The translations under genes were made by a program, and so were the position numbers. A stretch of DNA of 64,000 nt from an uncultured Desulfobacterales bacterium (GTDB taxonomy: Bacteria > Desulfobacterota > Desulfobacteria > Desulfobacterales > C00003060). Positions within the stretch are counted from its first letter, which is position 1. Each line of letters starts with the position of its first letter. The notes below the pieces were generated by a model, which ran no database searches, was not told the origin of the DNA, and saw nothing but the letters and a program-made list of their open reading frames with translations. The stretch lies in assembly GCA_964430705.1 (NCBI GenBank), contig CAYSGJ010000017.1:24007-88006 (forward strand), written 5' to 3'. Below are positions 4,515 through 43,031 of the stretch, piece after piece.

Positions 4515-5909
4515 ATGGACGTTCTTTCCCGCTATTGGAAAACGGTGGTCAGTACCATGCAAGACGGTCTGTTGGTTGTAGATACCCAAGGGACCATTGT
4601 ATCGATGAACCCGGCTGCAGAAAGGCTTACCGGATATCGCAAAGGCGAACTGTTGGGCAAATCATGCGAGATATTGGCCTGTAATGGATGCAAAGTGTTT
4701 CGTGGACACAAGTCAAAACACTGGTGTTCCCTTTTTTCCTCCGGCAAGATCCGGGCGAAGAAATGTCTTATTACGAATAAATCGGGAGAGACCATCCAGG
4801 TCGTCAAACATGCATCCCTTTTAAAAGATGAGTCCGGGAAGGTGATTGGGGCTATTGAGACGCTCACGGACATTTCAGATGTCGTCCGGCAGGAAAACGA
4901 GATTGCCTCTCTGCGCCGGACATTGCGCAACAAGGACGGCTATCACGGTATCCTGGGCAGGTCTCCATCCATGGAAAGGCTTTTTGGGTTGATTGAAAAT
5001 GCCGCCCAGTCGGACGCTCCCGTGGCTATTTTCGGGGAGAGCGGGGTGGGCAAAGAACTGGTGGCAAAGGCCGTTCACCAGTCCAGCGAAAGGCGAAAAA
5101 AACCTTTCGTGAAGGTCAGCTGTGCCGCCCTGAATGAAAATCTTTTGGAAAGTGAGCTTTTTGGCCATGTTAAAGGTGCTTTTACCGGGGCGCATCGAAC
5201 CCGTATTGGAAGATTCGAGGCTGCCCAAGGGGGATATTTGCTGTTGGATGAAATCGGGGATATGCCCTCAACCACACAGGTCAAGCTCTTGCGGGTACTT
5301 GAGGAAAAGGAAATCGAGCGTGTGGGGGACCATCAACCCGTCCAGGTAGATGCACGCATTATTACCGCCACCAATAAAAACTTGGATGCCCTTGTCTCGC
5401 AAGGTATCTTTCGAGAAGATCTTTTTTACCGTATTAATGTGATTCCTATCCATGTGCCGCCCTTGCGAGAACGGCCGGAGGATATACCGATCCTGTCCCA
5501 GTCATTTTGCGAGCGCATTTCCTTGAGAGGGCCAAAATCGATTGGAACGATAAGCCCAACAGCCATGGAAATGCTTGTGGCCTATCCTTGGCCCGGTAAT
5601 GTTCGAGAGCTGCAAAACACCATTGAGTATGCTTTTGTACTGTGTCGAGGCAAAGAAATCAAACCAGGTCACCTTCCGCCAAAGATCGTATCGGGGGCGG
5701 GAAAAGAAAGGGGGCCGGCTGTTGCGGCGAGTCCGGATCCTGGCGGGTTGGGTGGCGTGCGGGACAATGACTCGCAAAGGCAACGCCTGATCAATGCATT
5801 GCGACGTACCCGGGGGCACCAATCCAAGGCTGCGGCGCTTCTTGGAATCAGCCGGGTGACCTTATGGAAGCGGATGAAAAAATATGGTGTCGCCGCGGAC
5901 TACCGGTGA
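4515..5909 (+). CDS. Sigma-54-dependent transcriptional activator (PAS - AAA+ - Fis-type HTH)
   Basis: GAFTGA motif (HVKGAFTGAHRTR), Walker A (GESGVGKE) and a C-terminal HTH (AAALLGISRVTLWKRMKKYG). The PAS domain contains a Cys-rich insert. Start taken at ATG 4515 after GGGGAG. Confidence 0.9.
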   Translation: MDVLSRYWKTVVSTMQDGLLVVDTQGTIVSMNPAAERLTGYRKGELLGKSCEILACNGCKVFRGHKSKHWCSLFSSGKIRAKKCLITNKSGETIQVVKHASLLKDESGKVIGAIETLTDISDVVRQENEIASLRRTLRNKDGYHGILGRSPSMERLFGLIENAAQSDAPVAIFGESGVGKELVAKAVHQSSERRKKPFVKVSCAALNENLLESELFGHVKGAFTGAHRTRIGRFEAAQGGYLLLDEIGDMPSTTQVKLLRVLEEKEIERVGDHQPVQVDARIITATNKNLDALVSQGIFREDLFYRINVIPIHVPPLRERPEDIPILSQSFCERISLRGPKSIGTISPTAMEMLVAYPWPGNVRELQNTIEYAFVLCRGKEIKPGHLPPKIVSGAGKERGPAVAASPDPGGLGGVRDNDSQRQRLINALRRTRGHQSKAAALLGISRVTLWKRMKKYGVAADYR

Positions 5910-23160: not shown

Positions 23161-24096
23161 TCATCTTGCTTTCGTCTGCAGTCGCTGCATGGCGCTTTCG
23201 TAGGGCTTGCCCTCAAGAAACCGCCCGATGAAAAGCAGCCCCATGAATTTCTCGGCGTCTTTTGAAAGTTTCTCTCCCATGTCGGCCACCGTTCCGCGTA
23301 CGATACGCTGCCGATCCGGATACCCCGCCCAGAAGACGACCGCGCACGGCATGTCGGCGGGCAACACCTCCCCAAGATCTGCAAACAACTTCTCCGGATC
23401 ACGCAAGGCCATGTAAAGAACCATCGTGGCTGGGTATTTGGCCAGGTCCTGAAGGATCTGGGCGTCTTTCAAGCTTGCATCATCTCCCGACGCTCGATCT
23501 CTCAAAAAGGAAGGGCTTGCCTGCATAACGAACCTGGTGTCGTGGGAAGGAATCGTGCTTTTTCCAAGAGCTGCCATGGCCGACGCATCGCAGCCCATGC
23601 CCGGGATGATGATCACGTCTTGCGAATCGAAGTGCTCCACGTACCAGTGACTGGGACCGAACAGGCAGGGATTTCCCGAGTCGAGCAACCCTACATCTTT
23701 GCCCTGCGCCAACAGGGCCTTGATTTGTTTGACCCGCTCGTCCCTTATTTTGAACCGCTCCACCTTGAATTCGGCCTTTTCCTCCTCGCTCAGTTCCTGG
23801 GATTTTTTTCCCTTATAATCCCAGAGCCCTTTCCACGGATCAAACAAGGCCGTTTTCGGATCAATGTATTGCTCAAAAAGCTTCGCATGCTTTTCCGATG
23901 CCACAATCACCTCCATCCGCTTCATGGTCTCGAGGGCCTGCAAGGTGGCGGTCTGGGGGCCCGCAGGCCCGGTGCCGATGACATAGAAGTGGCCGCGTCC
24001 CCACGATCCGGCCTGAGGCGTGTGAAGACATAGAATGAGGACGGTTACAACGGCGACGGTCAAACAAGCTCGAATCGGTTGATGCCTATGCTTCAT
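23161..24096 (-). CDS. Exported tetrapyrrole-methylase-fold protein, paralogue 1
   Basis: Signal/anchor, then FYVIGTGPAGP, LLDSGNPCLFGPS, IIPGMGCDASAMAALG and TMVLYMAL. This is the motif order of the corrin/porphyrin methylase superfamily, with an altered Gly loop. Confidence 0.7.
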   Translation of the reverse strand: MKHRHQPIRACLTVAVVTVLILCLHTPQAGSWGRGHFYVIGTGPAGPQTATLQALETMKRMEVIVASEKHAKLFEQYIDPKTALFDPWKGLWDYKGKKSQELSEEEKAEFKVERFKIRDERVKQIKALLAQGKDVGLLDSGNPCLFGPSHWYVEHFDSQDVIIIPGMGCDASAMAALGKSTIPSHDTRFVMQASPSFLRDRASGDDASLKDAQILQDLAKYPATMVLYMALRDPEKLFADLGEVLPADMPCAVVFWAGYPDRQRIVRGTVADMGEKLSKDAEKFMGLLFIGRFLEGKPYESAMQRLQTKAR

Positions 24097-24103
24097 AAAT
24101 ACC

Positions 24104-24865
24104 TCACTTAATCCCAAAGGTTAACGTCATACAGTAAAAAAGCTCGTCGCATTCTGCCTGGTCAGGATACGGGCGTTTGTGAGGAACCTTGATCAGCCAC
24201 TCGCCCTTTTTTAAAATCTTGATATTGGCGATGCCGTCCCGGTTGACCATGGTTGAAAAGGCAAAGGTCTCGCCTTCATCGGAAAAACCGGCATAGGTGG
24301 CGTGTATGAAATCCCGAAACAGGGGGTGTCCTTTGTAGAGAAACTTTACCGGCAGCGTGTCCCCTTCTTTGAGGCTTGCCGGATTTGCCAGCGGCACAAT
24401 TTCGATAAAATCATTTTTTTCCCGGTTCAGGCCCTGTTCCTGTCCTCCCGCGTTGATGACCGCCTTGGCCCGCATATCATAGCTGACGCAATGCAGGGCG
24501 TTGTCCAGCCCTTTTTTATTCTGCCGTTTGGATCCTTCCGTGGTCTTGGTATACACACCGGGATTGATCTCGGCATACACCAGGTAGGTTCCTTTTTGTT
24601 TGACGGCAAGCTCGTATTTTCCTACGGCACGTTGCTTTATCGCCACGACATTGCCGTTTGGATCCAAAACATTCACATGCGCCAAGCGCTCCTCTTGCAC
24701 GATCTCATCTTTCGGAAACTTGTGACCCCAACCGACTTCGATCAGAACCGTGTCGCCGACTTGGGGCGCATAGTCGCCGGCATTGATCCAAAGCATGTGC
24801 CCCCAAACGGGAAGGGCGGCTGTAACCATCATCAAAAAGCACAACACAGAGACAATCTTTTTCAT
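24104..24865 (-). CDS. DUF4198-type periplasmic protein, paralogue a
   Basis: Signal peptide, then GHMLWINAGDY. Beta-rich, 253 aa. The family recurs next to the TonB-dependent receptors in this window. Confidence 0.7.
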   Translation of the reverse strand: MKKIVSVLCFLMMVTAALPVWGHMLWINAGDYAPQVGDTVLIEVGWGHKFPKDEIVQEERLAHVNVLDPNGNVVAIKQRAVGKYELAVKQKGTYLVYAEINPGVYTKTTEGSKRQNKKGLDNALHCVSYDMRAKAVINAGGQEQGLNREKNDFIEIVPLANPASLKEGDTLPVKFLYKGHPLFRDFIHATYAGFSDEGETFAFSTMVNRDGIANIKILKKGEWLIKVPHKRPYPDQAECDELFYCMTLTFGIK

Positions 24866-24976: not shown

Positions 24977-25888
24977 TTACTGCGTCCTGTGTTTGACCAT
25001 TCCCCGTTGCGGCTGCCCTTCCAGGCACCGGCCGACGATAATCATGCCCATCCAGTTTTCCTTTTCCACCTTGATGTCGTTCAGGATGGTTCCGAGGGTT
25101 CCTCTGATAATCTTTTCCTTGTCCGGATCTCCCGCGTAATACACAACTGCCGCGGGCATGTCATCGGGATAGTACTTTCTCAGCGTAGCCATGAGGTTGT
25201 CTGCCTTTTTCAGGGCCATGTAGAGGCCGATGGTAATGGGATACTTGGAAAGATCTTTCAGGATGGCCTCGTCTTCCGGTTTTCCGAACAGAAACGTAGG
25301 CGCGGTGAGCATGAGAAATCGGGTATCATAGGCCGGGATCGACGATGTTTTTAACGCCGCCATGGAGGCCTGGAAGCACCCCAGTCCCGGGATGATCTCA
25401 AATTCGTCTTTTCGGAGGCCCTCGGCAACCCGGTGGGAAGGGCCGAAAACGCAGGGATCTCCGCTATCCAGGACGGCCACGGTCTTGCCCCGGGCCATTT
25501 GTTGTCTGATTTTGGCAACCGTCTCATCCCAGAATCGGAACCGCTCTTCCCGATATTCCTTTTTTTCCTCCGGGCCTAAAGTTTCCAGGTTTTTATATTT
25601 GAAGTCACCACCCCACGGGTTGCCCAGGTACTCTTTGCCCTCGAGATAGGAAGAGAACCTTTCGCGCACGTCATCCGAGCAAAAAATAACATCCGCTTCC
25701 TTGATGCATTGCATGGCCTTGACCGTGGCATGCTCGGGGCCGGCCGGCCCGGTCCCGATGACGTAGCATTTGCCCCGGCCTTTGTGATCCGGATCGGCCC
25801 AAACATGGGAAGCACCTGTAAATAAGAGAAAAACAACTGTCAGGATAAATAAATCCCGTAACGCCATCATGTTACACCGGGTGTGCAT
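24977..25888 (-). CDS. Exported tetrapyrrole-methylase-fold protein, paralogue 2
   Basis: ATG 25888 lies 7 nt after AAGGAG. Signal ...FTGASHVWA/DP. Motifs CYVIGTGPAGP, VLDSGDPCVFGPS, IIPGLGCFQASMAAL and GLYMAL. Confidence 0.7.
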   Translation of the reverse strand: MHTRCNMMALRDLFILTVVFLLFTGASHVWADPDHKGRGKCYVIGTGPAGPEHATVKAMQCIKEADVIFCSDDVRERFSSYLEGKEYLGNPWGGDFKYKNLETLGPEEKKEYREERFRFWDETVAKIRQQMARGKTVAVLDSGDPCVFGPSHRVAEGLRKDEFEIIPGLGCFQASMAALKTSSIPAYDTRFLMLTAPTFLFGKPEDEAILKDLSKYPITIGLYMALKKADNLMATLRKYYPDDMPAAVVYYAGDPDKEKIIRGTLGTILNDIKVEKENWMGMIIVGRCLEGQPQRGMVKHRTQ

Positions 25889-26078
25889 TGTCAGACTCCT
25901 TTTTTCATTAACATCTTTTCGCCGAGCCACACTATCATATCGGGTTGAGCAAACATTCCCTCCCCGACGCCTAATCAACCACCCTTCTGTAGGAAAAGGG
26001 CTTATGCCCGCACGAAAACTGTCATGCCGGATTACATCCGGCATGACAGAAATGGTAACGCATCGTTGATTCACAACA

Positions 26079-28142
26079 CTAGAATTTCAGCGTCGCTGTC
26101 AGGCCGGCGGTTGTTCCCGGCATGTCATACCCGTATTTGAGCTGATAATCCTGGTTGGTGACGTTGTTTACATACCCCTTCAAGACGAATTCGCAATCTT
26201 GGGGCAGTTTGAAAGTGTGCTGTGCACCCACGTCCACAACCACCACGTCTTTCATGGTGTCGTGCTGTTTGTTGTAACGTTCCCCCAGGTACTTGGCATT
26301 GAGGTTCACCACCCCGTTTTCCCAGAGCTTGTAGTCCAGACCCATGGATACCTTGTTCCGGGGCTGGCTCTGCAGGAGATAGTGGGTGTTTTCCGTGTCC
26401 ATGGGATGGTTGCTGGCGTTCCAGTCCTGATACGTGTAAGCCAGATAGCCGCTCAGATCCTGGGTGAAGCTTCTGGAAAGCTCCAGCTCAACCCCGTAGA
26501 CGAGCATATCGATATTGTACACGACCGCAGAGGCAGCGCCGCTGATGTAATTGTGCTGCTGATAGTCGCTGATGTCGGAATAATAAAAGGCGGCGCGGAA
26601 TTTCGTGTCTTCCAGAAGCTCTTTGACGCCCCCTATTTCATACGTCCACGCTGTTTCTGTCTTATACTCGGGATTTGCCGCTGCATATGCCGCTTCGGAC
26701 CCGGCCCGGGCCCATCTCCAGATATCTCAGATTCAGGGCAAACGCATTTCACGGCTGACAGCCGCATAGAGCGACAGGCTGTCATCCCAGTCGTAGTCCA
26801 GCCGCGTCTTGGGACACCACTCCCGTTCCACCCTTACTGTCGCTGTATTGGGATCTCCAAATACGCGGGAGTCGGTCGAAAATTCGTACCAGCGCGTTCC
26901 AAATGTCAGCGTCGTCGCGTCGGTGATAGACCACACATCCTGAATAAAAAGCGCGGTAATTTCATAGTAATCTTTGTTGTCGGGCGTACCCTGATTCCGG
27001 TAGTCGCCGCCGATGGACAGTGAATGATCCTTGATCAGGGTGAAATCCAAGTAATCCAGCGCAATGCCCCCGGTGTATTCTTCCTTGTAGTTGGAGCTGT
27101 CCGTTCCGTCGGCATTATGCCGGTACCGGTCCCGCTTGGACAATTGCTGGTACACCTGCCCCCGCAACTGCCCGACCGGAAGAGGCTGTTCGATGAGAAG
27201 GCTCTGGTCGTTGACCGTCCTTTCCCACTGGTTTTTCCCTCCGGCGTAGGCCGTGCCTTCGTAGTCGTGGCTGAAGGTGTCCACCTCGCCGGCACGAACA
27301 ACCGGGTACCCGGGATCGTAGTTCGAATCCGGATCATCGGGGTCGTTGATCACGGCGTAACCCGTGACCGTGTCCACATGGTCGATGCCGTAGGTGATCG
27401 TGCCGCCCGTGGGAAGGTAAAGCGAGAAACGTCCATTGATGTTGTCCGTGTTATAGTCGTTTCCGCGCAAAAAACCATCGCCTTCCCTGTGGCCCGCCGC
27501 AACCGCATAACCCAAGGTATTCAGCACGCCGCCGCTAAGGCTTGCACTGTAGTTTTGGGCGCCATAAGGACCGAAGCCCGTTTTGACGGTTCCGTTGGGA
27601 GTAAGATCATCGGTCTTTTTCCCTTTTTTGGTAATCAGGTTGACCGCTCCGCCCATGGAAAACGGGAAAAGGAGCGAATGGCTTCCGCGGACGATCTCAA
27701 TGGTCTCGATCATGTCCAAGGGCATGGTGCTCCAGTCCATCTTGAAATATCCGTGACTTCCGTGGAGTCTTAAGGGCCTGCCATCCATGAATACCTGGAA
27801 ACGCGAATCGTCCATTCCCCGGATATAGACTCCCTCGCTTTGCGACGGGGTCACGGAAGAGAAAAGCACGTTTATGCCAAGCGCGTCGCTCAGAATATCC
27901 TGTACATTTTCCGCCTTGCCGGCTTTTTGAAATTCCTCCACATTGATGACCGTCACCTGCGGCGTCACCACCATCGATTCATCCCGCAAGGGATGATCCC
28001 TTACAATGACCTTGTCGAGTCGATAGACCTTTTCGTCCTTCTTGGGTTCCGTCTTCTGGGCCCTACTGAAGCCCGGAATCGACAACACAAGAATCAGGCC
28101 CATCAATCCGACCAGGCCGCATCTTAGAATCCTCGTTGTCAT
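26079..28142 (-). pseudogene. TonB-dependent receptor 1, one continuous frame interrupted only by two TGA codons (26735-26733 and 26729-26727)
   Basis: ORFs 26733..28142 (plug plus barrel) and 26079..26522 (C-terminal barrel ending ...ATLKF) are in the same frame. The gap reads ..REMRLP-TGA-I-TGA-DIWRW.., aligning to GFRAPSLFELY of paralogue 2. Confidence 0.6.
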
Positions 28143-28423
28143 TCTCCCTCCTGCTCCTTTAATACGTGTCCGGTGTGTTTATAAGGGAGATCGATCTCGG
28201 GCGTGACAAATGCGTGTTCAGGGACCATCCAATTGACCCGGGGATGATTCGGTAGTATAAATACTTTCGAAGCATCCTCCACCCGAGGGGCTTCCCGGGG
28301 AAGGCGGCGCTATGACTCTGGGTGAGCCTGCCGCCTTCCCCAACCTTTACGATCTCGGTTTTCCAGCAGCCGATTGCCGTCATCACCTCCTTTCTTTGGT
28401 TGTGTTGCTGCGCAAAAAACGAC
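28143..28423 (-). promoter_or_regulatory. Structured 5' leader domain (type-2), homologous to 42123..42414
   Basis: Shared blocks: AAAGGrGGUGAU; a 12-bp helix GGGGAAGGCGGC/GCCGCCUUCCCC; AAGCCCCUCGGrUGGAGGAUGCUUCG; an AU-rich segment; CAUCCC. Compensatory changes relative to the paralogue. Confidence 0.55.
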
Positions 28424-28578
28424 AAAAAAAAGCCACGAAGTCACATCATCCCTTCTAGGATGCAAGCCTTCGTGGCTGGATTTGAGAAATTCCGAATCTA
28501 AATTGGTATTACCGGCAGTTTCTACCGCCGAGTTGCAAGTATATGCTCATATTTATCAGCCAAGCCCATACCTGTCAA
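28424..28578 (-). promoter_or_regulatory. Leader module i: promoter + AGAA-loop hairpin + terminator-like compound hairpin
   Basis: TTGACA (28578-28573)-17-TAAATA (28555-28550). Hairpin CGGCGGU-AGAA-ACUGCCG (28530-28513). AUCCAGCCACGAAGGCU..inner AUCCU-AGAA-GGGAU..CUUCGUGGCU plus U8 (28477-28424). Confidence 0.6.
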
Positions 28579-29897: not shown

Positions 29898-30179
29898 ATG
29901 ATGCCTTTCATGAGAACAACACTGACCTTACAGGACGACCTGGCTCGAAAACTTCGTGAAAAGGCCCACCAGGAAGGCGTGTCTTTCAAGGAAGTCGTGA
30001 ATAATGCGATCAGGGAAGGTTTGAGCAGAATCGATCGACCCCAAAAAAATAAAAAACCGTATAAGTGCAAATCCTACAGCTTGGGTTATCCGCCCCGGGC
30101 TGCCCTTGACCACGCGCTGGAACTGGCAGACAGATTGGAATCAGAAGAGCTTGCGCGTAAATTACTGCTCAGAAAATGA
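29898..30179 (+). CDS. vapB: Type II antitoxin (VapB-like)
   Basis: MRTTLTLQDDLARKLREKAHQEG... is a typical short antitoxin. Its stop overlaps the start of the PIN gene. The start may be ATG 29910. Confidence 0.75.
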   Translation: MMPFMRTTLTLQDDLARKLREKAHQEGVSFKEVVNNAIREGLSRIDRPQKNKKPYKCKSYSLGYPPRAALDHALELADRLESEELARKLLLRK

Positions 30180-30604
30180 AACTCGTCGATATCAATCTGC
30201 TGATTTACGCCATCAATAAAGACACGCCCCATCATTCCAAGGCAAAGATTTGGCTGGAAGAGTCCCTGTCAAATGAGGAACCTTTTGGTTTCGCCTGGAT
30301 TGTGATTTTAGGTTTTTTGAGGATCGTCACAAATTCCAGAATCATGCCGGCTCCGCTTTCGCCCGAGCTTGCCATCGCTATTGTTGACGATTGGCTGCAA
30401 CAGCCGCCGTCGCTGACAGTTGTGCCATCACAACGGCACTGGTCCATATTGAAAGAATTGCTGCCGCCCCTTGGAACCGCCGCAAATTTAACCTCCGATG
30501 CCCATCTAGCTGCTCTGGCAATCGAGCACGGGGCCCGTCTCTATTCTACGGATAACGATTTCACCCGGTTTCAACCATTACGCTGGACAAATCCCTTGGA
30601 ATGA
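30176..30604 (+). CDS. vapC: PIN-domain toxin VapC
   Basis: MKLVDINLLIYA (first acidic residue), ...TSDAHLAALAIEHGARLYSTDNDF (PIN C-terminal acidic motif). Confidence 0.85.
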   Translation: MKLVDINLLIYAINKDTPHHSKAKIWLEESLSNEEPFGFAWIVILGFLRIVTNSRIMPAPLSPELAIAIVDDWLQQPPSLTVVPSQRHWSILKELLPPLGTAANLTSDAHLAALAIEHGARLYSTDNDFTRFQPLRWTNPLE

Positions 30605-32594: not shown

Positions 32595-33455
32595 TTACTT
32601 TGCGCACTGCCCCATGATGACCAAACCCAGCCATTTCTCATCCATTGCCTTCAGGTCCTGTTCGATCTTTCCCAGGCTGCTTCTCAAGACCCGCTCCTTG
32701 TCCGGGTAACCGGCGTAATATACGACGGCGATCGGCAAATCGGGAGAATAGTGTTGACGAAATCTTTCCGCCGCCTTGCTCATGGACGAAAGGGACATAT
32801 ACAAAACCATGGTCGTCTCATATTTAGACAAGTCCTTGAGGATCTCGTCTCCCTTTTCCCATGACTCGCCGAACAGGGACTGCGGCGAGGTCAGCGCGAC
32901 AAACCGCACATCACTTGGCGTCACGGTGGTTTTGAGGGCCGCCGCCGCCGCATTAAAAGCGCCCATGCCCGGCACCACTTCGAACAGGTCGGCATCAAAC
33001 CCTTCCAGCAGATAGTGAAGGCTCGGCCCGTAGACACAGGGATCGCCGCCGTCCATCATGGCTACGGTTTTTCCCTCGCTCAGTTTTTCCATGATGAATG
33101 CCTGCACCTTGGCCACCCGTTCCTTCCTTTCGGCAACCGCCCCCTCCGGATCGCTTTTTTTATCCTTTTCGACTTCCTTTCCCATCACGCGTTTCCACGG
33201 ATCAAAGGCAACCTTCTTGGGATCGATGTGCGTACCGAATCGCGCGAAGCGTTCCGGCATTCTCGGGGAACAAAGGTAAACGTCCGCCTTTTCAACGACG
33301 GCCAGCGCGCGGGGCGCCGTCAGATCGGCTCCGGCCGGCCCCATACCCACCACATACAGCTTGCCCATCCTGCCGCTGAACGCACTGAATGGGAATATCA
33401 GAAGGACAAGAAAAGCAACAACCGGCGCCAAGAAAAAGCTCGGGAATTTTCTCAT
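32595..33455 (-). CDS. Exported tetrapyrrole-methylase-fold protein, paralogue 3
   Basis: ATG 33455. Signal MRKFPSFFLAPVVAFLVLLIFPFSAFS. Motifs LYVVGMGPAGA, MMDGGDPCVYGPS, VVPGMGAFNAAAAAL and VLYMSL. Confidence 0.7.
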   Translation of the reverse strand: MRKFPSFFLAPVVAFLVLLIFPFSAFSGRMGKLYVVGMGPAGADLTAPRALAVVEKADVYLCSPRMPERFARFGTHIDPKKVAFDPWKRVMGKEVEKDKKSDPEGAVAERKERVAKVQAFIMEKLSEGKTVAMMDGGDPCVYGPSLHYLLEGFDADLFEVVPGMGAFNAAAAALKTTVTPSDVRFVALTSPQSLFGESWEKGDEILKDLSKYETTMVLYMSLSSMSKAAERFRQHYSPDLPIAVVYYAGYPDKERVLRSSLGKIEQDLKAMDEKWLGLVIMGQCAK

Positions 33456-33511
33456 AAAGCGACCTTCTCTTTCCGGATCTCTTTGTTCATATGGATGTTG
33501 CAACACGGCTG

Positions 33512-34021
33512 TTACCGCCCATCCCGTTTTTTCATGGCTGTTCGGTTTTTCCAAAGATAAGCAATCGCACCAACGTTGAACATCAGGCTTAGTCCCAATG
33601 CGATTTTACCGGATTTTGAGGTTGGTCCGGATACCATCGCCTGCGTATCCTTATTGGGATGGACCGAGTCGGCCTGCTCGGTTGCATCCGGTGCGACCTC
33701 GATGACACCGCGCGCCAGGTGGCCCATGCCATCCTGGACCTCTATATGCCATGTGCCTGCCGTGTCCGGATAGAAAGCGAATCTGCCGCGACGATCGGTT
33801 CTTCCGTTTTGATATTCGACTTTTTCATCCAACGGACTGAACACGAGCACTTCGGCATACTGCATGGGTTCTCCGTCGGCATAATTGAACTCGGCTGTAA
33901 CGGCCCTGGCATCGTCCAAGACCCGATAGGCCGTTCCATGGGCGCCGGCAGCGGCGGCGCCGAAAAACACCAACGCCGGAATAACTCCGAACCAAACAAG
34001 ATATTTCATCACATTCTTCAT
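33512..34021 (-). CDS. Periplasmic Ig-like/carboxypeptidase-regulatory-like domain protein with a C-terminal membrane anchor
   Basis: Signal peptide, then a beta-sandwich-like segment (GRTDRRGRFAFYPDTAGTWHIEVQD), then a C-terminal TM (IALGLSLMFNVGAIAYLW). TAATG overlap with the upstream gene. Confidence 0.6.
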   Translation of the reverse strand: MKNVMKYLVWFGVIPALVFFGAAAAGAHGTAYRVLDDARAVTAEFNYADGEPMQYAEVLVFSPLDEKVEYQNGRTDRRGRFAFYPDTAGTWHIEVQDGMGHLARGVIEVAPDATEQADSVHPNKDTQAMVSGPTSKSGKIALGLSLMFNVGAIAYLWKNRTAMKKRDGR

Positions 34022-38473: not shown

Positions 38474-38890
38474 AGATGTCCCTCCTCAAAGACCAAGATT
38501 ATAGGCTTTGGTATTTTTCCTCCATCAGGCATCCTTTGGAGCGCTCCAAGAAAAAGGGGGAAAGGGTTTCCGGGATGCAGGTTTTCCTTTGCGCCACTGT
38601 CTCCCATGTCCGGGAACTGCGGGGTGATTCCGGAAACCTTTTTCCCCCGGTGTGGGTATGTTTGTTGCGACGTCTTTCCTTGTACTGTGCAGGGGGTTGG
38701 GGGAGCCGTGTCCATGCTGACGGAGGGTGTCTACTACCAGAAGGCAATTCTTGCAGTACTGCGCATTCTTTTTGACGGCCTGAGCCAAACGGACCTGTCG
38801 AAGCTGGAAAAGGCATTGGCAAAAAGTGTTGCGATTATCCATCTGCGTTACTCCACCCAACCCCTGCACCCGGGTGTGTATCCCATCGTT

Positions 38891-39035
38891 TTTCCGGTGG
38901 CCCTCAACGCGGCACCAACGCGGCAAGGGCGACCGGGGTTAAGGAGGTGATGGGGGTGAACAAACGACCCGGTCCGGGAAAAACCAAAAAAAAAGCCAGG
39001 GGTCTCAGGCATTCCGCCTGTCGGCCTTCCTGGCT
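38891..39035. repeat. Repeat A (paralogue of 42882..43031): hairpin + perfect SD + GTG small ORF + compound hairpin
   Basis: Shared string TTyCCGGTsGCCC..CGCGGCACCrACGCGGCA..GCGACC..AAGGAGGTGA..GTGAAC..CCsGG..GGGAAAA..AAAAAAAGCCAGGGGTCTCAGGC.TTC.GCCTGT..GCCTTCC.GGCT. Confidence 0.7.
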
Positions 39036-42122: not shown

Positions 42123-42414
42123 CTATTTTCTCCTTTCTGAAAAATGAAAGAGACCGGTCAGGTCGCTATGATGACCTGAACAAATTCAGCTTTAACGAAT
42201 TCGTTGCTCGCAGGCACTTGAAGAGAAAACGGCTTGAAGGCGGGATGCCAAGATGATATGAATAACTACGAAGCATCCCTCCATCCGAGGGGGCTTTACT
42301 GGGAGGGCAGCGTGCGACTTTCGCCGGTGGCAGCTGCCTTCCCGACCCTTTTTTCTATGCCTGGTTTTGACCTCGACGTGTGTTGATCACCCCCTTTCTT
42401 CATTTTATTGCCAC
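42123..42414 (-). promoter_or_regulatory. Structured 5' leader domain (type-2), homologous to 28143..28423
   Basis: AAAGGGGGUGAU; GGGAAGGCAGC/GCUGCCCUCCC helix; AAGCCCCCUCGGAUGGAGGGAUGCUUCG; GGGAUGC/GCAUCCC helix. Confidence 0.55.
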
Positions 42415-42572
42415 AAAAAAAGCCACGAAGACATCGTATCCGTTCTCGGATGACAGCCTTCGTGGCCTTGGATTGTGCGGCGAACTCTAAACGCTATAAA
42501 AAATCGACATTTTGCAGCTTCTGCTGCAACAATTCATATCAACTCAATAGTATTTATTTCGACTGTAGTCAA
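42415..42572 (-). promoter_or_regulatory. Leader module iii
   Basis: TTGACT (42572-42567)-17-TATTGA (42549-42544). Hairpin UUGCAGC-AGAA-GCUGCAA (42529-42512). AUCCAAGGCCACGAAGGCU..AUCCG-AGAA-CGGAU..CUUCGUGGCU plus U7 (42467-42415). Confidence 0.6.
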
Positions 42573-42881
42573 TAGAAAAATTTACACTCGTATTTTTAGG
42601 CCTCGGAATTTGTCAGGAAGAAGAACCCAACTGCAACAATTGCCGCAAGGCTTGTGACAGTGTCTTTTTGTCGTGGCTCGCCAATCGGCCTGTTTTGCTC
42701 AAAACCAACCGATGATCCAGCGTAAAAAGCTTCATCCGCACCTTGGAATCGGCTTTCAATCAAGCTTTCCGTTTGTCGGTGATTGCTGTGTCGAGAGGCT
42801 GGTCGGGATTCCTCTGACTGGTGATCATGGCAAGCACCACGTGACCGCTTGCTATGTTGAACATCTTTGGATCTGACCTTG

Positions 42882-43031
42882 TTTCCCGGTCGCCCCCACC
42901 GCGGCACCGACGCGGCAGGAGCGACCTGGAGTAGAAAGGAGGTGAGAAAGTGAACCAGAAAAAACCTGGCCCGGGAAAACCACAAAAAAAGCCAGGGGTC
43001 TCAGGCGTTCTGCCTGTAAGCCTTCCCGGCT
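42882..43031. repeat. Repeat B (paralogue of 38891..39035)
   Basis: See repeat A. SD AAGGAGGTGA at 42936-42945. GTG 42950 opens a 35-codon ORF, MNQKKPGPGKPQKKPGVSGVLPVSLPGFWLCSCVS. Confidence 0.7.
42984..43031 (-). terminator. Terminator-like compound hairpin downstream of the methyltransferase gene
   Basis: Minus strand: AGCCGGGAAGGCU..CAGGC-AGAAC-GCCUG..CCCCUGGCU plus U7. Confidence 0.55.

Follow-up and report, generated by a model that had tools for sequence, protein, structure and literature searches.

An uncatalogued structured RNA domain in the leaders of Desulfobacterales uptake operons, probably a new gene-control element

Introduction

Two operons in a 64,000-nucleotide stretch of DNA from an uncultured Desulfobacterales bacterium (contig CAYSGJ010000017.1; the whole stretch is hereafter called the window) have leaders of about 280 nt that resemble each other block by block. 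One (28143-28423) precedes the gene of a TonB-dependent receptor, receptor 1, and the other (42123-42414) a DUF4198 gene, both on the minus strand. The original prediction, made from the sequence alone, took them for a structured leader domain common to two uptake operons and outside the riboswitch classes that it recognised. This raises the question of whether the two leaders share a selected RNA structure, whether that RNA belongs to a known family and what it could do for the genes that follow. Here, we report that they carry two copies of a conserved non-coding RNA domain that lies outside every catalogued RNA family and is a conserved, strand-specific part of the mRNA leader or intercistronic spacer in Desulfobacterales uptake operons. 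In kind it is an uncatalogued, structured cis-regulatory leader RNA, and it is probably a new gene-control element of these operons. Throughout, the leader domain runs from a Shine-Dalgarno (SD)-like block (block 1) to the 3′ strand of helix P2, the upstream unit is the hairpin-plus-terminator unit that lies before it, and L-numbers denote retrieved loci; features in the window are on the minus strand unless stated otherwise.

Results

A leader domain shared by two operons and absent from Rfam

Local alignment of 28143-28423 with 42123-42414 scored far above dinucleotide shuffles under three scoring schemes (z = 18, 23 and 10), and the two stretches, which the original prediction had placed correctly, are homologous (copy 1 and copy 2). 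The likeness is patchy: plain blastn finds only the terminator directly upstream and not the domain. The pattern GGGAAGGCRGC-N(10-40)-GCYGCCYTCCC occurs in the window only at 28298-28340 and 42301-42343, with 0 occurrences expected by chance. All the blocks listed earlier were found again, namely AAAGGrGGUGAU, a long helix with a G-C to A-U change, AAGCCCC..GGAGG(G)AUGCUUCG, an AU-rich stretch and CAUCCC; the 'variable hairpin' said to follow the first of them turned out to be merely a variable purine-rich spacer of 22-72 nt. The position of the domain stood as well, but not its extent as the limit of the similarity, which begins farther upstream, in a terminator-containing unit common to both leaders (28424-28578 and 42415-42590). 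This unit also stands before receptor 2.

A scan of the whole 64-kb window with Rfam 15 (4227 models, including Cobalamin, AdoCbl-variant, NiCo, Mn/yybP, Moco and c-di-GMP-I/II) gave no match at gathering thresholds. At E<=10 with permissive filters, both leaders gave chance-level matches only and no riboswitch model, in keeping with the original prediction, which could place the domain in no class that it recognised. The best match within either leader was to freshwater-2 (19.5 bits against a threshold of 49.9), which sits on the ribosome-binding site (RBS), outside the domain. Twenty related loci (137 kb) yielded one tRNA and nothing else from Rfam. In literature searches, we found no earlier description of the leader domain or of the upstream unit, and no mention of the domain in a 50-genome survey of orphan riboswitch candidates (PMC11109978).

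Relatives of the domain

Relatives were gathered by a pattern on the upstream unit, on which both collection scans were anchored, with the leader domain itself left unconstrained. The genome scan returned 13 true loci, 11 of them labelled Desulfobacterales, Desulfobacteraceae, Desulfobacteria, Syntrophobacterales or Deltaproteobacteria; the remaining two are L009, binned as Candidatus Stahlbacteria, and L017, labelled just as an uncultured bacterium. The metagenome scan supplied about 19 additional loci. The domain was present after the U run of the upstream unit in 14 of 35 such leaders, and a profile search added two copies that do not adjoin a pattern match (L041 and L020). A second retrieval, independent of the RNA sequence, used orthologues of receptor 1 (52-80% identity): the domain lies upstream in 9 of the 11 distinct loci retrieved by the protein alone and is missing in L070 and L071, so that its blocks are kept upstream of orthologous operons. 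In total, 25 distinct copies were collected, 2 in the window and 23 in Desulfobacterales metagenome-assembled genomes (MAGs) and metagenomes. With a covariance model derived from them, all 25 score 70-140 bits and the next best match 23 bits, and the model finds exactly two copies in the window.

Three covarying helices and fixed unpaired nucleotides

From 5′ to 3′, the domain consists of a 12-nt SD mimic, a variable purine-rich spacer, a hairpin P1, a junction GUGAAG, a long-range helix P2 that encloses a hairpin P3, and an unpaired GUCAA. The architecture sketched in the original prediction was right in its conserved blocks and in P1 and P3, and it missed that there are three helices, one of them (P2) long-range. 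In the comparison of the 25 copies, P1, P2 and P3 all covary.

Pairs were counted on a MAFFT alignment made without reference to a structure. In P1 and P3 together, 15 of 21 pairs are changed on both sides, compared to 6.5 +/- 1.7 in column shuffles (0 of 500 reach the observed number), and 85% of the cells are paired, a share that falls to 39-54% if the 3′ partners are shifted by 1-3 columns; the model-fitted alignment agrees with these counts. P1, which alone folds at about -20 to -33 kcal/mol, has double-sided changes in 8 of 11 pairs with 94% of its cells paired, for instance GGGAAGGCAGC/GCUGCCUUCCC against GGGGAGGUGAC/GUCACCUCCCC in L069. P3 has them in 7 of 10 pairs, as when GGGAUGC/GCAUCCC is replaced by GGGUGCC/GGCGCCC (L020) or by GGACGCUU/AAGCGUCC (L041), and its G-U pairs assign the structure to the gene strand.

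P2 is formed by 14 nt located 3′ of the junction and a segment 1-50 nt past GUCAA. Cognate strands pair more strongly than non-cognate ones (mean duplex energy of -16.1 versus -13.7 kcal/mol, 0 of 20000 permutations), and this also holds on 13 representatives (-17.1 versus -12.6 kcal/mol, 0 of 50000 permutations). In L068, L073, L063, L017, L041, L074 and L005, the P2 strands are wholly different in sequence yet complementary, as in CCCCUUGAUCGGA with UCCAUCAGGGG (L068), UUGGUGAG with CUCACCAA (L073), GGGACAGA with UCUGUCC (L017), CCACGGGG with CCCUGUGG (L041) and CUCGAA with UUCGAG (L074). A closing helix, in which the AAAGG flank on the 5′ side of P1 would pair with the pyrimidine tail beyond P3, was considered and dropped (cognate -4.2 versus -3.6 kcal/mol, permutation p = 0.066).

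While the stems covary, RAAG in the junction, UCAA, the CCGGCCAG loop and AUAnCAC stay fixed without being paired, in agreement with the earlier claim of loop conservation combined with covarying stems. These fixed unpaired nucleotides argue for specific recognition over mere stability.

The domain does not code for protein, since any one reading frame is open in at most 10 of the 25 copies and the distances between conserved anchors vary by non-multiples of three. This agrees with the earlier statement that no conserved open reading frame (ORF) follows the SD-like block. A tiny ORF after the mimic, MRK(K/N)VD, was rejected, as its start (AUG to AUA) or its stop codon is lost in close relatives.

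A Shine-Dalgarno mimic without a start codon

Block 1, AAAGGAGGUGAU, matches at 10 or more of its 12 positions in 21 of the 25 copies, and we take it to be a 12-13-nt complement of the 3′ tail of bacterial 16S rRNA (GAUCACCUCCUUU). Where an AUG is present at the block, it overlaps the mimic, and no conserved ORF follows. Base-pair probabilities over the copies gave no consistent intramolecular partner: the pairing GGAGGU:GCUUC proposed by RNAalifold was discarded, as a different partner appears in almost every copy. A block with neither a usable start codon nor a conserved partner in cis fits a partner in trans, such as the 30S subunit.

Two candidate RNA partners in trans, AUCACCUCCUUA (~38949) and UCACCUCCUUUCU (~42944), have a simpler explanation, each being the reverse complement of a plus-strand RBS with a GUG 7-8 nt downstream; these look-alikes of the 16S tail are confined to the window and its close relative L017. 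They lie in an element of about 110 nt common to 38850-38985 and 42850-42980 and to L017 (~5700-5830), which follows two upstream units in place of an obvious gene and holds AUCACCUCCUUA or UCACCUCCUUUCU, complementary to block 1, together with a hairpin CCGGUCGCCC..GCCGCGUUGGUGCCGCG..GGGCCACCGG. On its plus strand, the RBS is a strong one, and the GUG is the start of small Lys-rich ORFs (VN(K/Q)..PGPGK..), which cross the terminator in antisense. In two receptor orthologues without the leader domain (L070, ~2425-2440; L071, ~2440-2455), a lone AAAAAGGAGGUGAA or AAAAAGGAAGUGAA stands about 65 nt before the start codon with no conserved ORF, and the SD mimic can thus exist without the fold.

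Anatomy of the two window copies

In copy 1, the SD mimic AAAGGAGGUGAU occupies 28393-28382, with the AUG overlapping the block and no usable start codon. The purine-rich spacer is 41 nt long, and 12 copies have one of 41-43 nt. P1 spans 28297-28341, with GGGGAAGGCGGC (28341-28330) paired to GCCGCCUUCCCC (28308-28297) beneath an apical GGCUC-ACCCA-GAGUC, and is followed by the junction GGGAAG (28296-28291), a variant of the consensus GUGAAG of which AAG is nearly invariant in the alignment. The 5′ strand of P2, CUCGGGUGGA (28287-28278), pairs with its long-range partner UCACGCCCGAG (28206-28196) at -17.0 kcal/mol. Between them lie P3 (28242-28277), where GGAUGCUUCG (28277-28268) and CGAAUCAUCC (28251-28242) close an AU-rich loop with the conserved AUAnCAC, and, 3′ of P3, the unpaired GUCAA (28237-28233), whose UCAA is invariant or nearly so over the 25 copies. 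About 50 nt separate the 3′ strand of P2 from the SD and the AUG of receptor 1 (28142-28140). In the minimum-energy fold of the full leader, UCUCCCUU (28190-28183) of a downstream platform (28140-28190) is predicted to pair with the true SD GGAGGGAGA (28151-28143); this SD-sequestering pairing is not conserved over the family.

Copy 2 starts with AAAGGGGGUGAU (42397-42386), in which an A-to-G change would leave a G-U wobble with the 16S tail. P1, GGGAAGGCAGC/GCUGCCCUCCC, lies at 42343-42301. A local hairpin, CCCUC-GGAUG-GAGGG (42291-42277), can form in place of the long-range P2, which this copy does not have, the best long-range partner reaching just -7.8 kcal/mol (z = +0.8). P3 (42242-42279) pairs GGGAUGC (42279-42273) with GCAUCCC (42248-42242), and UCAA comes next at 42237-42234. 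L048 and L020 resemble copy 2 in having the local hairpin and no long-range P2.

A second module behind a promoter-proximal attenuator-like unit

Within a composite leader, the domain makes up an optional second module, behind a promoter-proximal upstream unit. This unit consists of a sigma-70-like promoter, an NGAA-loop hairpin, an AU-rich linker and an intrinsic terminator topped by a second NGAA-loop hairpin. The stem of its hairpin varies freely in sequence and has at least 6 bp in 32 of 53 units, where 1.9 are expected. The terminator stem is GCCACGAAGGC/GCCUUCGUGGC; in the window it follows the pattern GCCAsGAAGGC/GCCUUCsUGGC, in which a C-G to G-C swap is compensated.

Upstream of copy 1, the unit (28424-28578) begins with a promoter-like TTGACA (28578-28573), followed by its own first hairpin with an AGAA loop (28531-28512) and the AU-rich linker; the terminator GCCACGAAGGC..[CAUCC-UAGAAG-GGAUG]..CUUCGUGGC (28476-28432) comes last, its U run reaching 28424. 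Upstream of copy 2 (42415-42590) there are a promoter-like TTGACT, the hairpin UUGCAGC-AGAA-GCUGCAA (42529-42512) and a terminator (42466-42422) whose U run reaches 42415. The window holds seven such units, all on the minus strand and within an uptake island at 28-49 kb; besides these two, the terminators lie at 37097-37053, 39034-38983, 43030-42982, 43916-43879 and 49115-49072, and the hairpins, 45-65 nt upstream of the terminators, at 37152-37135, 39093-39075, 43094-43076, 43964-43948 and 49179-49164. We rejected the idea of a generic, genome-wide terminator, as the four exact copies of GCCACGAAGGC and three covarying variants in the 64 kb are all in leaders of the uptake island.

More than 50 units were found in related contigs. 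The genes after 42 units include 18 TonB-dependent receptors, 4 DUF4198, 3 CbiM and 2 FmdE, one each of CobN, TP_methylase, an ECF S-component and a BtuF-like binding protein, and others. Judged by these genes, the regulon is of the Co/Ni/corrinoid type, and the Rfam scans of the window and of the 20 loci placed no classical cobalamin riboswitch in it. The unit itself, which is not in Rfam, has the appearance of an attenuator or a small-RNA family that serves the whole Co/Ni/corrinoid uptake regulon. Some units, not all, have a palindrome AGCATATGCT (AGCATATACT in unit 1 and AAGCATATGCTT in unit 3) between their -10 region and first hairpin, at 28547-28538 and 37170-37159 and also in L069 and L029; it may be an operator for a dimeric repressor.

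Genes that follow the leader domain

The leader domain is co-oriented with and upstream of a gene in all 25 copies, and this gene is of the exported uptake class in 24: 19 TonB-dependent receptors, 3 DUF4198 and 2 exported TP_methylase-like proteins, the last gene (L048) being cut short and unassigned. This range of genes is narrower than that of the upstream unit. Within the window, the next gene differs, copy 1 being followed by a receptor and copy 2 by DUF4198. Copies without an adjoining upstream unit were found inside operons, after tonB (L060), a flavin reductase gene (L074) and a permease gene (L041). The domain occurs both behind the terminator and inside operons, and hence it tracks the downstream cistron and not the promoter.

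Receptor 1 (26079-28142) is a single reading frame, about 687 codons long, in which UGA occurs twice, at 26735-26733 and 26729-26727. It is not a broken gene: the context ..MRLP-UGA-I-UGA-DIWRWA.. recurs as P-UGA-(I/V)-UGA-D in all 12 orthologues checked, and a covarying hairpin resembling a selenocysteine insertion sequence (GGGCCCrGGCyGGGUCC or GGGCGCAGGCUGCGUCC) follows about 17 nt past the UGA codons. Receptor 1 is thus a candidate selenoprotein TonB-dependent receptor with a Sec-x-Sec motif (Sec, selenocysteine). A Sec-containing TonB-dependent receptor has been predicted computationally in Desulfosarcina sp. BuS5 (PMC12013277).

Proteins of the tetrapyrrole-methylase fold (PF00590) that have an N-terminal signal or transmembrane segment are constant partners of the receptor and DUF4198 genes. 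They are found in the window (24977-26074, 23161-24117 and 32595-33554), in L029 (7820-8674) and in L041 (890-1744), and an IU_nuc_hydro-FmdE fusion often comes after them (L070, L072). It is unusual for an uptake operon to include an exported protein of this kind, which hints that the cargo is a tetrapyrrole or corrinoid. Between the uptake operons, the plus strand carries a VapBC-type toxin-antitoxin pair, in which a ribbon-helix-helix gene (29898-30179) overlaps a PIN-domain gene (30176-30604), with a DUF4143/NERD fragment directly upstream.

Discussion

What the leader domain may do

The fold, the fixed unpaired nucleotides, the position and the strand of the leader domain are conserved, and what it does with them can be read in several ways. 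The reading we favour, which is quite possibly right but which we hold tentatively, is that it is a factor-binding cis-regulatory RNA, either an orphan riboswitch or a site for a protein or the ribosome, acting on the next cistron. It would act in cis and after transcription initiation, by binding a specific trans factor (a small ligand, a protein or, by way of the SD mimic, the 30S subunit) that would set the access of ribosomes to the next cistron or the survival of its mRNA. The pyrimidine-rich strands CCUUCCC, CCCCCUC and CAUCCC, which are anti-SD-like, would be locked away from the real RBS when the fold forms. In the clade of L015, L037 and L043, CAUUUUCC (P3 3′ strand) and CCCCGAGG (P2 3′ strand) are complementary to the real CUUUGGGGGAAAAUG, which comprises the SD and the AUG, and formation of the fold is predicted to turn translation on. 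Modelling of L015, L043 and L069 gave RBS-unpaired probabilities of 0.51-0.69 with P2 formed versus 0.19-0.29 with the P2 5′ strand blocked. The domain would thus be an optional second layer of control behind the terminator of the upstream unit, which would gate the whole operon.

Several observations weigh against this reading. In 15 of 18 modelled leaders, access to the RBS is unchanged by P2, the mean RBS-unpaired probability over the 18 being 0.53 versus 0.45 (Wilcoxon p = 0.054), and a general P2-dependent RBS switch is unsupported beyond L015, L043 and L069. P2 belongs to the minimum-energy fold of most leaders and hence looks constitutive. No intrinsic terminator was found 3′ of the domain, and the start codon lies far from the domain and at varying distances, about 40-130 nt and up to 306 nt (L041) and 411 nt (L072). 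The domain is also dispensable, as orthologous receptors in L070, L071 and L014 lack it. Finally, the copies all belong to a single order and include many close relatives (effective sequence number 6.6), so that the conservation of unpaired nucleotides weighs less than the raw count suggests.

Features general to riboswitches were seen, namely a covarying structure with fixed unpaired nucleotides in the cis leader of a coherent set of genes. A doubtful but possible extension of the factor-binding reading is that the domain is the aptamer of a new riboswitch class for the cargo of the receptor/DUF4198/TP_methylase systems or for a linked signal, which together with the upstream unit would make a two-input tandem leader that replaces the classical cobalamin or metal regulators across a whole Desulfobacterales uptake regulon. 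Candidate signals would be metals (Ni or Co, for example), corrinoids and other tetrapyrroles, and selenium-related compounds.

The main rival, which is possible though we doubt it, is a constitutive module for mRNA stabilisation or processing that senses no signal. A 30S subunit on the SD mimic, together with P1-P3, would shield the receptor cistron from 5′-end-dependent decay after read-through of the upstream terminator or endonucleolytic cleavage inside the operon, so that an abundant outer-membrane component gains more mRNA than its operon neighbours. This would account for an SD mimic that is a perfect complement of the 16S tail with no ORF and no conserved RNA partner, the defining trait of a STAB-SD, and for copies that lie between cistrons, as in the order tonB, domain, receptor in L060; the stability of P1 alone, the presence of P2 in the minimum-energy fold and the mostly unaffected RBS fit it equally. 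However, a hairpin can stabilise mRNA without any invariant unpaired nucleotides, whereas here RAAG, UCAA and the loop motifs are fixed, and the mimic is not near the primary 5′ end, as some 130-170 nt of the upstream unit come first. STAB-SD elements are documented for Gram-positive bacteria with RNase J1, and their extension to Desulfobacterota would be by analogy. We consider it unlikely that the domain serves as a Rho shield or a processive antitermination element for long operons with two slowly decoded UGA codons in the first gene, by a fold that hides the C-rich tracts of an untranslated leader of more than 400 nt or by a modification of RNA polymerase. The leaders are indeed long (in unit 1 from a promoter at ~28578 to the AUG at 28142), all three pyrimidine-rich strands named above are within helices, and many copies precede a receptor with two in-frame UGA codons; but the domain also precedes receptors and DUF4198 genes that have no such codons, and the Rfam scan showed no likeness to the known put or EAR elements.

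A little less likely again is that a stable small RNA is released to act in trans, or as a sponge that titrates an RNA-binding protein or another RNA, its place upstream of the gene being incidental. The compact, stable fold and the many GGA motifs of the purine-rich spacers would suit such a role, whereas neither a promoter nor a terminator of its own is conserved, and a co-oriented position directly upstream of one gene class in all 25 copies is hard to reconcile with it. That the likeness reflects mere shared ancestry of duplicated operons, or a small protein gene, with no RNA structure under selection, is highly improbable. The two window operons are paralogous in content, each with a TonB-dependent receptor and DUF4198, and copy 1 happens to hold an ORF of 88 codons; against this stand the compensatory changes in three helices over the 25 copies, the lack of a shared open frame with insertions and deletions that are not multiples of three, and the different genes that directly follow copy 1 and copy 2.

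Comparison with known systems

The btuB-type cobalamin riboswitch (RF00174 and variants) is, like the leader domain, a structured 5′ leader of TonB-dependent receptor genes, and the wider regulon of the upstream unit, with its receptors, CbiM, CobN, BtuF-like protein and ECF S-component, resembles a classical B12/cobalt regulon. The G/A-rich strings of the domain (GGGAA, GGUGAAG) superficially recall the cobalamin core. However, the domain matched no cobalamin model at E<=10, has no B12 box or GCCACUG in the right order, and is a hairpin followed by a nested two-helix stack, whereas the cobalamin riboswitch is a four-way junction with a kissing loop.

The SD mimic shares with STAB-SD, described in Bacillus thuringiensis as a stabiliser at the 5′ end of cry3A mRNA (Agaisse and Lereclus 1996, as cited in PMC7509114), an SD sequence that lies in an untranslated leader, far from the start codon, and at which translation does not begin. 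In STAB-SD, this sequence stands alone, close to a 5′ end made by processing, and the host is Gram-positive; the mimic, in contrast, comes with a conserved three-helix fold, about 130-170 nt into a primary transcript and in Desulfobacterota.

With orphan riboswitch candidates of the Breaker/Weinberg type, such as those of the 50-genome survey, the domain has in common a narrow range, a few dozen members, covarying stems, conserved junctions and a consistent association with one gene class. It differs from them in its absence from Rfam 15, in the SD mimic and in being a second module after another RNA element. That other element, the upstream unit, recalls both the targets of ANTAR proteins and terminator-embedded aptamers (HMP-PP/thiS riboswitch, PMC6478431), in that two loop-conserved hairpins with a variable linker lie beside an intrinsic terminator and conserved nucleotides are inside the terminator stem. 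ANTAR targets carry a pair of hexaloops in which position 1 is A and position 4 is G, and their second hairpin competes with the terminator (PMC8934654). We rejected the unit as an ANTAR target, since its loops, of the form xAGAAx or NGAA, are UAGAAA, CAGAAG, AUGAA or GAGAAC, and its second hairpin tops the terminator stem without competing with it.

Conclusions

Desulfobacterales sulfate reducers are key organisms in marine sediments and in syntrophic consortia, including as partners of alkane-oxidising archaea (the Eth-SRB2 MAG, L015), and the control of their trace-metal and cofactor uptake is largely unknown. The family described here is reproducibly defined by a covariance model, 25 members and three covarying helices, along with a partner element, and the two together mark out an uptake regulon without a recognised riboswitch or repressor site. 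If the leader domain binds a ligand, it would be a new riboswitch class and give a handle on the cargo of the receptors; if it is a ribosome-binding stabiliser, the STAB-SD principle would reach a Gram-negative phylum.

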